From Eledone cirrhosa (lineage: Eukaryota), in contig OZ024742.1 of NCBI GenBank assembly GCA_964016885.1, positions 118,234,001-118,298,000 of the forward strand: a stretch of DNA of 64,000 bases, given 5' to 3'. The notes under the pieces were generated by a model. The model was not told the origin of the DNA. It made no database searches and saw nothing but the letters and a program-made list of their open reading frames with translations. Shown in pieces: positions 1,531 to 49,545 of the stretch; within the stretch, counting starts at the first letter, position 1; each line of letters begins with the position of its first letter. The translations under genes were made by a program, and so were the position numbers.

Positions 1531-2444
1531 ACGTCCACTTACTCCTCTAATGATAGTGGGGACAAGGTCCTGGAACACTCCTTCCACTATCTTTATCAAT
1601 CAAAGGAGGCAATCTGGAATACATATTCGTATGGTATACCTATTCTTATATCTACCCTGTTTATATACAACAAATAAAGATTCTAACTTCATTGTTTCCG
1701 AAGACGGTATGATCGAGCCTATATATTATGTCTGATAGTATACAGTTTTCTGTGTATATATACATGTGTGTGTGTGTGTGTGTGTGTGTGTGTGTGTGTG
1801 TGTGTGTGTGTGTGTGTGTGTGTGTGTGTGTGTGTGTGTGTGTGTGTGTGTGTGTCCATGTGTGTGTGTTTCCATGTGTGTGCATGTGCTTATGTGCGCG
1901 AGTGTGTGTGTCTGAATTTACGTGACGATTTGACATAAACGTGTAAAAGAAAATATGTACCAGACTTGAAAAAGTAAGTTCTGAAATCAAAACAATCGAC
2001 TAAATCAATCATTAAGTTATTGATTTCTCATACGGCTTTATAAGCTTTCCCCTATATATTTCACGCTATTGTCTACCTCATGTATTTTATATTATCATGA
2101 ACCAATTTTCCCAACAAAGTTTAGTAACCATGCACAGTCTGATGTTTGTGTGAATGTATATATGTGTGAGGTTCATATAGTGTATATATATATATATATA
2201 TATATATATATATATATATATATATATATATATGTATATATATATATATGTATATATATATATATATATATACATATATATATATGTATATATATATATA
2301 TATATATTAGAAAGTGAGGGTTTTTTTACAAAATGAAAAATAACCGAGGTGTCCTACACGAGTGAAAGTATAAAGAAAAAGAGATGAAATCGAAAATGCA
2401 ACTGGAGTCTTATTTTTTTTTTAAATATATATATTTATTTGGTT

Positions 2445-2482
2445 CCTTTACCGGTTTCGCAGTTCTTCTGCTTTTCAAAAGG
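2445..2482 (-). ncRNA. Type I hammerhead ribozyme, U3-A8 core variant (F1)
   Basis: Reverse complement of the motif at 3507-3544. Confidence 0.7.
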
Positions 2483-3506
2483 TGAGTTGAGATGGAGGGT
2501 CTGTGGTTTTTCTCACATCTGGTTGGTCTCTGAATGTTACTTGTTTTATATGGAAAAAGTGGCTCGAAATGCCAGGTTTTTCGAGAAGTAATTTGATTGG
2601 TTTGTCAATAATTATAATAAATTTCGCGCCAGTTCGCGTTACAATAGTTCTTCAAATAAGAGGGGGGTTGTCACAAGTTGTTTTTTCATATATGAATGTT
2701 TGAATTTCTTTTTACTTGAAAAAAGGGGCTCACGAAGGCTTTTTTTTTGGTTGGTTATAAATGAAATTATGGCTGTCACGTGAACAAGTTTTCATTAAAT
2801 TTTCGTGCCCTTATTTGGAAATCCATTCTGTAGCCTTTTTAGAGAATTTTATAAGGGAAAGATAATGGTCAAGAGAAAGATGGGAGAATTGTTCTGGTTC
2901 AGTGAATATGGTTAGTTCGCTGGGGTGTCAGATTTTCTATTGAATAAAGAAAGTAAAGATATGTATGTTTATTTGTGTGCTTGTGTGTGTGTGCGTGTGT
3001 GTGTGTTGTGTGTGTGTTTGAATTTCTTTACTTAAAAAAAAGGTGGCTCACGAAGGCTTTTTTTTAATAAACGTGATTTGATTGGTTATAAAGGAAATTT
3101 GGCTGTCACGTGAACAAGTTTTCATTACATTTTTGCGCCCTTATTTGGAAATCTATTCTGTAGCCTTTATAGAGAATGTTATGACAAGGGAAAGATAGTG
3201 GTCAAGAGAAATGGGATTGGGAGAATTGTTCTGGTTCAGTGAATATGGTTTGCCCCTTTTTTCAAGTAAAAAGAAATTCAAACACTCATATATGAAAAAA
3301 CAACCTGTGACAACCCCCCCCCCCCCCTCTTATTTGAAGAACTATTGTAACGCGAACTGGCGCGAAATTTATTATAATTATTGACAAACCAATCAAATTA
3401 CTTCTCGAAAAACCTGGCATTGCGAGCCACTTTTTCCATATAAAACAAGTAACATTCAGAGACCAACCAGATGTGAGAAAAACCACAGACCCTCCATCTC
3501 AACTCA

Positions 3507-3544
3507 CCTTTTGAAAAGCAGAAGAACTGCGAAACCGGTAAAGG
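3507..3544 (+). ncRNA. Type I hammerhead ribozyme, U3-A8 core variant (F1)
   Basis: cctt-UUGAAAA-gcag(aagaa)ctgc-GAAA-ccgg-UA-aagg: 4-bp stem I, 4-bp stem II, palindromic stem III (accggt), GUA site. Confidence 0.7.
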
Positions 3545-3761
3545 AACCAAATAAATATATATATATTTTTTAAAAATAAGACTCCAGTTGCATTTTCGAT
3601 TTCATCTCTTTTTCTTTATATATATATATATATATATATATATATATATATATATATATATATATATATATATATATATTAAAGAAAAAGAGATGAAATC
3701 GAAAATGCAACTGGAGTCTTATTTTTTACCACACTTCCTTCGTTATATATATATATATATA

Positions 3762-3957
3762 TATAACGAAGGAAGTGTGGTAAGGAACCAGGTGGACCAT
3801 AACGCCCCAGAGTACTCGATACTTAGGGAAGTAGAGTGGATAATAGGAAAAGAGCCAGGACCCTGACGGCTGAGCTCCGACCGTTTCGACAGCTAGATCC
3901 GAACAACTGTCGAAACGGCCGGAGCTCAGCCGTCGGGGCTCTGACTCTTTTCCCATA
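3762..3957. mobile_element. Palindromic short element (family also at 39972-40165, 43858-43915, 46729-46770)
   Basis: Imperfect ~55-bp-arm hairpin at 3843-3955 plus a tail shared with the 40-kb copy; sits between (TA)n tracts. Confidence 0.75.
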
Positions 3958-4574
3958 TATATATATATATATATATATATATATATATATATTGTGCGCG
4001 TGTGTTTGTATACAAATACACGTGTTAACAAGCGTGAAACTGTATATTTTAACAACAGCTTTCTTAGGCAAAATATCAAAATAATCTGGAACCATAACAT
4101 ACTAGCTCTCTTTCTTCCCACTTTCACGTGAAGACTACATTTTTCAAATTCGGTGAATCAACTGAAGAACTACATACTGAAAACTAATTGTTTATAATGA
4201 AAGAACTCTAGTGAATAAGCCGCTTTGTAGTACTTTAAGAAAATTCTGAAAGAACCACACAAACGCTCGCACACACACATGCACCCCCACCCCACCCCAC
4301 ACACACACACATACGCACATACACATAGACACGCGCGCGGGCATGTATGTCTCTGTATGTGAGTCTCTGTGTGTGTGTGTCCATTTCAGATTATGGTTTG
4401 TTGGCATCCCGGTGTAATATATAACATAAGCATATCTATGGAACCCAATGTTGTGTTTCAGTAAAGTATGACACCATATAAATTGGAACCCAAATCTAAC
4501 AAAAGAACTGCAAGCATCCTCCCTTATTCCATTCCCTCATTACCCGCCTTGTCATTGGATTGGCAAGGATGGTC

Positions 4575-4745
4575 GATTGGCAGAATCGGTAGAGGGTCTG
4601 ACGCCCTGCTTTGCAGCAAAGATTTACAGCCCTTTATGGTCTGAATTCAAATTCCGCCGACGTCAACTTTGCCTTTCATCCTTACGGGGTCGATAAAATA
4701 AAGTACCAGTAATGTACTGACCTTGTGCCAAAAGTAGAAAAAATT
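4575..4745 (+). mobile_element. tRNA-derived SINE (family S1)
   Basis: A-box-like tggcagaatcgg, B-box-like gaattcaaattcc, core aactttgcctttcatcc...ggggtcgataaaataaagtaccagt; about 10 copies in the window. Confidence 0.85.
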
Positions 4746-47318: not shown

Positions 47319-47361
47319 ACGATGCTGACGATAGCTAATAAGCTTGAAACTAGTTCATCGT
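47319..47361 (+). ncRNA. Type I hammerhead ribozyme (F2b)
   Basis: acgatg-CUGACGA-t agct(aata)agct t-GAAA-ctag-UU-catcgt. Confidence 0.87.
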
Positions 47362-47975
47362 TCCTTTGTCAGTGTTGAACAAAAGGGCGACGATGGTTGC
47401 CGAACACTGTACGGCTTAATTCGGGCTGTTTGTTTACAAACAAACCGAACATTGTAATAAATGTTCGGTAAAACCATACGTACATGTATATATATGTGCG
47501 CATGTATGTATATATATACATACTACTGTACGTCTGTATACATATATGTATGTACGTATACATAATAACATTTAAGTATCAGCCGTACTAAGAGTGAGAA
47601 ATGAAATTTCATTTCATTCTTTTCCATTTATATATATATATATATATATATATATATATATATATATATATATATATATATATATATACAAATAAAATAC
47701 AGTGTTATTAACTGATATTGATACCCTGCAATTAAACAAGCTCAAAGTATGAATACTGACCATTATATAGCAATATATGTATAAATAAACACACTAAATT
47801 TCGTTTCTAAAATTACGAGGGTAGAGAATGCCACAAATGTTTTAAATATTTAATCTTAAACATACAGTAGGATAGTATTTTATACTGTAAAATATGCACC
47901 TCGTGGGCTGCACGCCATACGTGGTATTTTTACTCCTCCGGTTGCTGTTAGATGTGTTTTGTTTCATTTGATCTA

Positions 47976-48064
47976 ATCTCTCGCTGATGATAGCCTACAG
48001 ATTATCTGTTACAAACACAATTTTCAGGGCGAAACAGATTAAATCTATAATCTGTCCGAGAGAT
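47976..48064 (+). ncRNA. Type I hammerhead ribozyme (F7, copy 1)
   Basis: atctctcg-CUGAUGA-ta gcct...gggc-GAAA-cagatta(aatcta)taatctg-UC-cgagagat: 8-bp stem I, 7-bp stem III, GUC site. Confidence 0.88.
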
Positions 48065-48207
48065 AAAATGTTTTTGATACGGTCAGTATAAAATTATATC
48101 CTACTGTAGGCTTAAGATTAAATATTTAAAACATTTGTGGCATTCTCTACCCTCGTAATTTTAGACACGAAATTTACTGTGTTTATTTATACATATATTA
48201 CTATATA

Positions 48208-48395
48208 ATTGTTTCTACTTTTGGCACAAGGCCAGCAATTACCCAGTGCATTACTGGTACTTTATTTCATCGACCTCGTAAGAATGAAAGGCAAAGTTAA
48301 CCTCGGCGGCATTTGAACTCAGAATGGCAAGTGCCGTAACTATGCGTCAAAGCATGGCGTCCGACTCTCTACCGATACTGCCAATCCCACCTTTT
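48208..48395 (-). mobile_element. S1 SINE nested in the F7 element
   Basis: Reverse complement of S1; tattactatataat duplicated on both sides. Confidence 0.85.
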
Positions 48396-48647
48396 TTACT
48401 ATATTATTACTATATAATGCTCAGTATTTATACTTTGAGCTTGTTTAATTGCAGGGTATCAATATGAGTTAATAACTCTGTATTTTATTAGTATTCCGGC
48501 TCCCTATCTAGGTGAGCTTATAAATTGAGTGTAATAAGGCTAATATTTCTAGCATAACCACTCATACCACGTATGGCGTGCAGCCCACGAGGTTCATATT
48601 TTTACTCCTCCGGTTAGTGTTAGATGTGTTTTGTTTCATTTGATCTA

Positions 48648-48736
48648 ATCTTTCGCTGATGATAGCCTACAGATTACCTGTTACAAACACAATTTTCAGG
48701 GCGAAACAGATTAAATCTCTAATCTGTCCGAGAGAT
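48648..48736 (+). ncRNA. Type I hammerhead ribozyme (F7, copy 2)
   Basis: As copy 1; a stem I C-to-U change leaves a U.G wobble. Confidence 0.87.
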
Positions 48737-49545
48737 AAAATGTTTTTGATACGGTCAGTATAAAATTATATCCTTCTGAATGTTTAAGATTAAATATTTA
48801 AAACAGTTGTAGCATTCTCTACCCTCGTAATTTTAGACACGAAATTTACTGTGTTTATTTATACATATATTACTATATATAAATATATATATATATATAT
48901 ATGTATATATATATATATATATATATATATATATATATATATATATATATATATATATATATATATATATATATATATATATATATATATATTCATACAC
49001 ACATAAGTGTGCACTTGATCGTTATCAAGTATTTTGTTTTAAATTTGTTATTAAATTTAATAAGATACTCAACGAGTTATGTAGTCTTACTTTCAGTGTA
49101 GATTGTCTCTAGTTCTGTGTTTTGGTGTGTCTTTGTGCACACTTATGTGTCTATGAATATATTCCAATCACTTTCTTATAATGATTAAGGCTCGATTTTA
49201 TTCTCTGAATTCTATCTTGAGCTGTTTTTAGAGACAAGACATATGTTTGATTTTGTATCATTCGTGACCCCTTTACTTTGAAAGTAATAATAATACTTTC
49301 TTTATTAACCACAAGGGTTTACATAAAATAGACATTAAGGACAGTACAGGACAATACAGGACGATACAAATGGGCATTTCTGCGTGTAAAAAACAAAAAC
49401 AGAGGATGTAACAAAAAAATAACAATGAAAAATTCCTCAGTAGGGGGGAGACTTCCGAGGGACATTTGTGGAGAAAACCCATTAAAAGGCCACAGTGACC
49501 CTGACCACCAGGGCAAGTGCCCTCTCCCAGTTTTCCACCTTTAAT

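Follow-up and report, generated by a model that had tools for sequence, protein, structure and literature searches.

Hammerhead motifs in the window

We analysed a 64-kb stretch of the Eledone cirrhosa genome (contig OZ024742.1, positions 118,234,001 to 118,298,000; hereafter the window), for which an earlier reading of the letters, here called the original prediction, had proposed a community of hammerhead-ribozyme elements sharing (TA)n repeats with Penelope-like elements (PLEs). The window holds 18 type I hammerhead folds that sort into seven families, labelled A-G (Table 1). Four of these (B, D, F and G) are ends of PLEs whose open reading frames (ORFs) encode a reverse transcriptase (RT) and a GIY-YIG endonuclease, and the other three (A, C and E) are ORF-less, retrozyme-like units that PLE enzymes probably mobilise in trans.

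A strict descriptor of the type I hammerhead (stem I, CUGANGA, stem II with an optional basal mismatch, GAAA, stem III, UH and stem I') found 14 motifs in the window and none in the reversed window, and 60 local dinucleotide shuffles yielded a single motif in total (mean 0.017, maximum 1). Position C3 of these motifs lies at 13992, 14460, 14945, 15413, 24816, 47325, 47984 and 48656 on the plus strand and at 22061, 29323, 29952, 30581, 34339 and 47041 on the minus strand. A relaxed descriptor added the remaining four (32155, 33876, 2478 on the minus strand and 3511 on the plus strand), and with them every one of the roughly 18 predicted motifs was recovered. In the motifs at 32155 and 33876 (family F), the arm of stem II extends over about 124 nt and forms a single long hairpin when folded. 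The proposed CUGANGA core does not hold for 2478 and 3511, both of which read UUGAAAA (U3-A8). The predicted number of about seven families was borne out, with the array at 13985 and the pair at 47005/47319, which are 74-78% alike, forming one family (A). Rfam at its gathering threshold reported none of the window's motifs; at a loose E-value one of three motifs gave a weak Hammerhead_HH9 match (E 0.032) and two gave none, and the output for the whole window was dominated by microRNA models on TA repeats (best 150 of 346 rows). The 18 folds are confirmed as real and stand far above chance. Weak or decayed hammerhead-like folds also occur at 17545-17574 (minus) and 43567-43608 (plus), and an AT-only fold at 27645-27732 (plus) is probably a chance one.

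Table 1. Mapped elements and hammerheads of the window; PLE types are assigned by protein motifs (UTR, untranslated region; SINE, short interspersed element)
Feature	Position	Strand	Remarks
Family G, 5'-truncated 3' end of Neptune-type PLE	2308-3616	minus arm and inverted plus arm	between (TA)n runs
Family G tail, 61 nt	2308-2368		on minus-strand arm
Family G inverted arms	2369-2667 / 3322-3620		98% identity
Family G hammerhead	2445-2482	-	U3-A8, palindromic stem III
Family G hammerhead	3507-3544	+	U3-A8
Family A array, 4.7 copies of 468-bp ORF-less unit	13564-15760	+	3' end joined to (TA)n
Family A array hammerheads	13985-14029, 14453-14497, 14938-14982, 15406-15450	+	one per unit
Family B, 5'-truncated second Hydra-clade PLE	21962-25006		inverted arm, GIY-YIG remnant, ~90-nt tail
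Family B 3' UTR	within 21962-25006		internal duplications
Family B hammerhead, inverted arm	21999-22069	-
Family B hammerhead	24808-24878	+	palindromic stem III
Hydra-1, 5'-truncated copy	25012-34218	+	young autonomous Hydra-clade PLE with nested insertions
Hydra-1 open frame	24991-27060	+	RT, then GIY-YIG
Hydra-1 3' UTR, ~4 kb	ends at 34218	+	microsatellite-like
Family C array, 3.4 copies of 629-bp ORF-less unit	28994-31125	-	in (TA)n run within Hydra-1 3' UTR
Family C array hammerheads	29249-29329, 29877-29958, 30506-30587	-
Second, nested Hydra-1 end	31943-32360		inverted terminal 156 bp and hammerhead-bearing piece
Family F hammerhead of nested Hydra-1 end	32145-32299	+
Family F hammerhead, Hydra-1 3' UTR	33866-34020	+	long stem II
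Family D, short 3' end of third Hydra-clade family	34291-34415	-	hammerhead 34295-34345
Decayed inverted pair of family D ends	40408-40590		G at cleavage position, short stem I; absent from the original prediction
Family A, second subfamily	46796-47628		inverted-arm hammerhead 47005-47047 (-); main arm with tail, 47319-47361 (+)
Family E, inverted arm and dimer of ~463-bp ORF-less unit	47689-48883		inverted arm 47686-47885
Family E hammerheads	47976-48064, 48648-48736	+
SINE between the two family E hammerheads	~48193-48388	-

Conservation and folding of the motifs

Conservation was measured on copies found by homology in loci not picked for the family concerned. The core is conserved across genomic copies: its uniformity exceeds that of the flanks in family A (0.99 vs 0.85, n = 19) and in family D (0.96 vs 0.58, n = 20), and likewise in B, E and G on 4-10 copies. 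The descriptor is still passed by 13 of the 19 A copies and 10 of the 20 D copies. When 18 of the A copies were aligned (one with a deletion was excluded), two-sided changes appeared in 6 of 14 pairs, a value matched by 0 of 500 shuffles, and pairing reached 85% against a maximum of 42% in slid controls. In the isolated motifs of B, C and F the hammerhead lies within 1.3 kcal/mol of the optimum, and in E it is identical to it. In A, B, F and G, stem III consists of nothing but a palindrome. These four are predicted to cut as dimers, whereas C, D and E can fold stem III alone.

Families B, D, F and G end autonomous PLEs

The original prediction took all families for non-autonomous, retrozyme-like parasites embedded in non-coding sequence. 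The surroundings are indeed non-coding locally, but four families proved to be UTRs of coding elements: by continuity of sequence, the hammerheads of B, D and F are shown to lie in the 3' UTRs of three autonomous Hydra-clade PLEs, and those of G in the 3' UTR of a Neptune-type PLE. The copies of these four are mostly 5'-truncated stumps, often with an inverted arm, and ORF-bearing parents were found for each in place of the short tandem units of a non-autonomous element.

Family F belongs to Hydra-1. All 150 scored genome matches to the Hydra-1 endonuclease are 99-100% identical, many of them within frames of 824-830 codons, and full-length tandem units of 6.7-6.9 kb with an 824-830-aa frame are co-linear with window positions 25012-34218 minus the nested insertions. 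Every full-length unit fetched carries the family F motif as its 3' UTR hammerhead, and terminating copies run into (TA)n, the target of the element. In the 830-aa frame the RT motifs come first and a GIY-YIG domain follows at the C-terminus (VYxC...YIG at residue 710). The protein has RWR at 54 (K to R relative to RWK), DKT at 132, a CxCx5C linker at 690, and CxxC at 788 and CxH at 816 around the conserved E and N; GxKF and DKG are absent. Its endonuclease is without CCHH: the stretch from GIY to YIG contains no CxxC, and in Hydra-2 the second Cys of that stretch is missing. It has no insertion-in-fingers domain, as the RT3-RT4 spacing is 63 residues vs 66 in the Neptune-type protein. By these motifs and its domain order, the window PLE is assigned to the Hydra clade; a Pfam search did not recognise the protein, and a homology search with the Hydra protein returned 118 homologues. 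The unit length departs from the description of the clade as generally <3 kb, which is descriptive and not diagnostic. The inter-ORF region that forms the 3' UTR includes 15 (TA)5+ runs and consists to 33% of alternating purine-pyrimidine tracts, vs 11% in a genomic sample. This UTR (window 27060-34218; L101:4606-8789 in a second locus) is a degenerate TA/TG/CA repeat of about 4 kb that is copied along with the element, and much of the apparent microsatellite here is therefore element body.

The stretch at 21961-25010, predicted to be a GIY-YIG-bearing PLE, keeps a C-terminal remnant of the endonuclease only (22839-23195) and is itself a family B copy; the open frame belongs to the element that follows it. 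On its upstream side, family B passes into a second Hydra element, which is frameshifted, since one locus (L197) matches both the GIY-YIG remnant and the hammerhead end, and no tandems <1 kb were seen among 69 family B loci. The family D motif is continuous over 2.6 kb of UTR with a third Hydra frame (L220, L221, L224), and the window copy is a diverged subfamily. The family G arms match at 84-97% the UTR of locus L199, the bearer of a 770-aa RT and GIY-YIG frame. Its protein has GLKF (GxKF) at 44, DKG at 150, a CX4CxxC linker at 640 plus GIY-YIG at the C-terminus, and Pfam places RVT_1 and GIY-YIG above cut-off. We label this parent Neptune-type by its motifs; the linker would also fit Nematis. 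A CX2-5CxxC linker is described as common to the Neptune and Nematis clades (PMC8557442).

Families A, C and E form retrozyme-like units

The remaining families do look like the predicted non-autonomous retrozymes. Their units (A, 422-538 bp; C, 626-642 bp; E, ~463 bp) each close on themselves and hold one type I hammerhead, their GC content is 34-36%, and the longest stop-to-stop frames of the circularised units are 99, 83 and 65 codons for A, C and E. By blastn they resemble neither the four autonomous parents nor each other. They fit animal non-LTR (long terminal repeat) retrozymes, with predicted cleavage and putative circles, and we call them retrozyme-like.

In all three families the copies have fixed end points inside the unit, which lie 130-310 nt downstream from the cleavage site. 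Each of the 21 terminating copies of family C has its end no more than 3 nt from unit position ~262 (numbering starts at the cleavage site), with (TA)n beyond it. The 24 outer ends of family A, near position 310, all pass into (TA)n, 23 of them within about 10 nt. At these A and C ends the next bases of the unit are TA-like, hence a few bases of microhomology to (TA)n, and the A unit itself holds (TA)9. A second class of A ends lies about 60 nt further in, and inverted pairs typically hold one of each class, the arrangement that is the tail of PLEs; a one-sided tail is seen in families A and E. The 5' ends of the copies are scattered round the unit. In family C, 2 of 15 fetched candidates begin at the cleavage site, which is about the level of random truncation at a site with TA microhomology; in the window, the A array begins 10 nt and the C array 16 nt past this site, as single and anecdotal cases.

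Inverted arms, predicted for five of the window's elements, are present in G, B, A at 47 kb, E and F. Among the first 100 matches listed, 11 of 58 A loci and 28 of 69 B loci have pairs whose arms face outward; inward-facing pairs are found at 1 A locus and 0 B loci. Upstream of the hammerhead, copies of A, C and E continue into the unit's own downstream sequence, even in single copies of <2 units. The A and C arrays share their fixed 3' sites with monomers and also occur in inverted arms. Among distinct units, divergence within arrays is 0.29% in A and 1.1% in C, vs 7.6% and 4.1% between loci, and the unit of an inverted arm differs from its own array by <1%. In each of five loci where Hydra fragments adjoin A or C, a (TA)n run lies between them. 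Against contigs of four sequencing runs of unstated kind, the A stretch was matched densely in one, partially in one, and hardly or not at all in two.

The SINE of family E was considered as a captured sequence and rejected, because SINEs in both orientations and of different variants at one TA-rich spot point to repeated independent insertion. A SINE-like repeat of about 190 bp also lies at window 4571-4749, 9527-9714 and 42992-43181, and five times in L197. Outside the window, a further retrozyme-like family has ~311-bp tandem units, a hammerhead with palindromic stem III and outward-facing inverted arrays (L061:8630-9683, L067:6165-7877).

Core variants

Leaving positions 3 and 8 free, we obtained 11,074 genome matches to family G, with U3 and A8 in 99 of the first 100. 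When all 16 combinations of these positions were scored in a 400-kb genomic sample, only C-G (61) and U-A (10) gave more than 2 matches, five of the U-A matches coming from one satellite. The U3-A8 of family G is a known compensatory form of the C3-G8 pair, reported from nature (PMC3088659) and from schistosome PLEs, including Schistosoma Cercyon (PMC4209133). At least four further families with U3-A8 cores were seen (L035:3181, L038:2380 and 2975, L070:6106 and 9442, L152:2088).

Another Hydra family outside the window (L013:1140-1200) ends in a full hammerhead fold in which A replaces the conserved U4 (core CAGAAGA). With position 4 free it has 19,605 genome matches, the first 100 listed all reading A, and the 400-kb sample contains 7 vs 0 when reversed. 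Either this A4 core is tolerated, or the ribozyme of this highly successful element is dead.

Abundance across the genome

The genome spans 3.0 Gb, with the window on contig C3. For the 400-kb sample, 10 kb was taken at each of 40 round coordinates on contigs C1-C12, with 28 of these stretches on the four largest. In it the strict descriptor picked up 52 motifs, vs 1 in the reversed sample and 0-1 in ten shuffles, which extrapolates to ~390,000 strict motifs genome-wide (bootstrap 220,000-560,000). A relaxed scan found 72 vs 2 reversed, in 24 sequence clusters of which one or two are probably chance, and the estimated density is 130-180 motifs per Mb. With 18 motifs per 64 kb the window stands at about 1.5-2 times the genome average; the community is therefore genome-wide and the window is no special site. 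The estimated total lies above the counts we found in print, which rest on other descriptors: 126,247 in the 28-Gb axolotl genome, >6,000 in Acropora and ~5,000 in Mytilus (PMC7229834), and ~9,000 in Xenopus tropicalis (PMC4209133).

Copies of each family were counted by exact patterns, for which every backwards control gave 0 and which, for B-F, span the 3' half of the motif only. Family A has 24,164 exact motif matches, B 15,179, C 788 and 965 (two patterns), D 27,916, E 96 with a subfamily-specific pattern, and F 9,159. A first search for the Hydra-1 endonuclease gave 62,042 candidates, and Hydra-type protein matches occur in 8 of the 40 sample stretches. Hydra elements may dominate the PLE content of the genome.

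The proposed (TA)n boundary is general: a (TA)5+ run lies within 300 nt downstream of the cleavage site in 50 of the 52 sample motifs, vs 30% of random positions, and the hammerheads are of the PLE type and share the (TA)n niche with PLEs, as had been predicted. Runs of (TA)5+ make up 7.6% of the sampled DNA. The elements themselves carry such targets, in the (TA)5+ runs of Hydra-1 and the (TA)9 of the A unit, and in the window the C array and the second F end sit inside Hydra-1. As a hypothesis, they would be one of the main sources of (TA)n in the genome.

Proposed mobilisation by PLE enzymes

We read the window as a guild of PLE-dependent retroelements with a common (TA)n target, in which A, C and E are mobilised in trans by PLE enzymes, and give this a probability of about 0.72. 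A PLE GIY-YIG endonuclease, of Hydra or Neptune-type elements, would nick (TA)n, and the RT would prime at a fixed internal site on the element RNA and copy until it falls off, so that the 5' end would be random. The outward-facing inverted arms would result from priming on both strands of the palindromic target, and the one-sided tail from two RT start sites. A, C and E would borrow this machinery, most likely from Hydra elements because these are young, abundant and TA-targeting. The purified Poseidon PAc protein of Anolis (Frangieh et al. 2024, PMC11167929) behaves comparably in vitro: it cuts and extends both strands of AT-rich DNA, and its RT starts at two internal sites, which define the tail. 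It differs in priming without homology to the cut DNA, whereas the A and C ends here show TA-like microhomology to (TA)n.

The template step is the weaker part. We suggest that A, C and E are copied from a hammerhead-made circular monomer, round and round, to give arrays of near-identical units, and, within the trans-mobilisation reading, hold this to be slightly favoured. Because the cleavage site is read through in almost every insertion, with just 2 of the 15 fetched C candidates starting there, the template would be either a ligated circle or an uncut tandem transcript; the repetition of one exact monomer within each array and the strength with which A pairs with itself lean towards circles.

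A number of observations weigh against this account. On the template step, uncut tandem transcripts would leave the same trace as circles; local amplification explains one exact monomer per array equally well; and the cleavage site shows no accumulation of 5' ends, which sets linear cleaved monomers aside as the main template and means that the ribozyme may be inactive while insertion proceeds. Hammerhead mutations had no effect on PLE insertion in vitro (PMC11167929), and only 1 of 9 tested retrozymes cleaved in a 2026 preprint (10.64898/2026.07.22.740005). As to the folds, the isolated motifs of A, D and G have a lowest-energy structure that is not the hammerhead (1.4-2.9 kcal/mol lower). 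The covariation set holds 15 distinct but related sequences, with two distant-subfamily copies supplying part of the signal, and because of this relatedness we take the covariation as support and not as a probability. Family E ends less cleanly, its 42 anchors including 13 that run straight into TA, 11 into a SINE and 7 unclassified. No sequence link of A, C or E to one helper appeared on comparison with four parents of many PLE families, and the cleavage, expression and circles of these elements are predictions.

One alternative is that A, C and E are truncated pseudo-LTR (pLTR) ends of unfound autonomous PLEs, whose arrays arose satellite-like by unequal crossover after insertion, with no trans-mobilised parasites at all. 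Four of the seven families did prove to be such ends, a preprint by Li et al. proposes that retrozymes begin as PLE termini with local amplification, our loci were read for 1.5 kb per side only, and high identity within arrays is also expected from local amplification. What makes us think it unlikely is that A, C and E run from the hammerhead upstream into their own downstream sequence, single copies included, that (TA)n parts them from the adjoining Hydra fragments, and that their arrays keep the 3' ends of the monomers and occur in inverted arms.

A second alternative differs from trans-mobilisation through circles only in the template step: PLEs would move A, C and E as uncut multimeric read-through transcripts, without circles, the hammerheads being relics or RT handles. 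Read-through of the cleavage site in nearly all insertions agrees with it, as do the in vitro insertion that does not need hammerhead cleavage (PMC11167929), reports that PLE hammerheads often cleave poorly or not at all (PMC4209133; the 2026 preprint), and the 19,605-copy Hydra family with A for U4. Selection on a catalytic fold is, however, suggested by core conservation and compensatory stem changes across subfamilies 15% apart and by the U3-A8 covariation. Moreover, each array repeats one exact monomer, comparable repeats give circles in coral, mussel and axolotl (PMC7229834), and the A monomer, folded as a circle, is much more stable than shuffles (z -8.3; C -3.7; E -1.9; TA/TG palindromes contribute). 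We regard this version as quite improbable.

That all seven families are non-autonomous parasites of Naiad elements, as originally predicted, now seems very improbable. Naiads do favour (TA)n, form inverted and tandem insertions and occur in cephalopods, but they have an N-terminal endonuclease, DKA and no canonical hammerhead, and only remnants of them are left in cephalopods (PMC8557442). The window PLE shares none of these diagnostic traits: its RT precedes a C-terminal endonuclease, with the DKT, RWR and CxCx5C of the Hydra clade, and B, D, F and G have ORFs of their own. Chance folding in AT-rich repeats has almost no likelihood, for although some stems are AT-only and the fold at 27649 is probably of this kind, the reversed and shuffled controls of window and sample and the covariation in family A speak against it.

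Preferring trans-mobilisation by PLE enzymes, we also considered a fuller picture as a whole: a hammerhead population denser than any other on record (several hundred thousand motifs in two dozen families or more, with natural core variants at 10^4 copies), circular retrozyme RNAs copied by rolling-circle target-primed reverse transcription by a still-active Hydra enzyme, and a feedback in which each insertion plants (TA)n targets and which is a main source of the (TA)n load. Taken jointly, this is possible but doubtful.

Other features of the window

Short palindromic stumps of one shared sequence family lie between (TA)n runs at 3724-3955, 39975-40161, 43860-43913 and 46732-46770; they are probably 3' ends of another PLE-type element whose kept part has no hammerhead. 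An 800-bp sequence between long (TA)n runs (37328-38133), without a hammerhead match, is possibly a TA-targeted insertion. The minus strand of 49400-64000 holds a long interspersed element in three tandem copies with an AP (apurinic/apyrimidinic) endonuclease and an RT, including a 1001-aa frame at 55899-58904 (Pfam RVT_1, Exo_endo_phos), which we take to be L1-Tx1-like.

Relation to known systems and significance

Set against open-access text, the elements are of known kinds and form no new class; what is unusual is their scale. The families could already be catalogued elsewhere. The Hydra clade comprises PLEs with a C-terminal endonuclease (EN+), and Octopus bimaculoides already has a listed member that targets (TA)n and bears a hammerhead, Hydra-1_Obim (Craig et al. 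2021, PMC8557442). The elements described here agree with the clade in having RT before GIY-YIG, DKT, an RW-basic motif, CxCx5C, CxxC/CxH around E and N, a (TA)n target, a 3' hammerhead and partial tandems with inverted arms. They differ in unit length (4.4-6.9 kb vs <3 kb), owing to long 3' UTRs (~4 kb in Hydra-1), and in reaching copy numbers up to 10^4; compared by eye, the Hydra-1_Obim hammerhead matches none of the seven families.

In 2014 Cervera and de la Pena (PMC4209133) described the minimal hammerheads, with palindromic stem III, of metazoan PLEs, a genome having many families of them and some motifs lying in pairs on opposite strands. Ours resemble them (PMC4209133; Perreault et al. 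2011, PMC3088659) in these respects and in occurring mostly as single truncated copies, in U3-A8 covariation, in pairs 100-700 bp apart and in an extra base before stem II. They differ in density, 130-180 motifs per Mb here vs ~126,000 for the 28 Gb of axolotl and counts in the thousands for coral, mussel, frog and schistosome, obtained with differing descriptors. The 124-nt stem II arm of F and a high-copy A4 core were not found in the text of either paper.

Non-LTR retrozymes with PLEs as candidate helpers were reported in 2020 (Cervera and de la Pena, PMC7229834), dimer and circle models are restated in a review (PMC6765202), and Li, Clavereau and Pollet argue in a 2026 preprint, from co-occurrence and pLTR homology in vertebrates, that retrozymes are non-autonomous PLE derivatives (10.64898/2026.07.22.740005). 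A, C and E share with these retrozymes ORF-less, low-GC tandem units of a few hundred bp with one type I hammerhead each, and their co-occurrence with PLEs. They differ in that the PLE link comes from insertion anatomy (fixed 3' ends, tail, arms, (TA)n joins) and not from pLTR homology to a parent, and in that their cleavage and circles are predicted from sequence. Among the papers listed by an open-access literature search, none by title concerned octopus hammerhead-ribozyme families, and the main text of an O. vulgaris repeat paper (PMC13282606) does not contain the terms ribozyme or retrozyme. The new part would thus be three retrozyme-like families whose insertion footprint links them to (TA)n-targeting PLEs, next to a helper candidate that is young and intact.

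These findings bear on which enzyme moves animal retrozymes and on what PLE hammerheads do, questions for which the published support is co-occurrence and vertebrate pLTR homology. Because Rfam misses all of the motifs and the O. vulgaris repeat paper names no ribozymes, a large ribozyme-bearing share of genomes like this one, including many apparent miniature inverted-repeat elements (MITEs) and microsatellites, may be misannotated PLE ends. The U3-A8 and A4 cores and the long stem II are natural cases for probing what a hammerhead tolerates. With young retrozyme-like families and their mapped RT starts beside a young, intact helper candidate, trans-mobilisation becomes directly testable in vitro, and the genome is a notable test bed for the link between retrozymes and PLEs.

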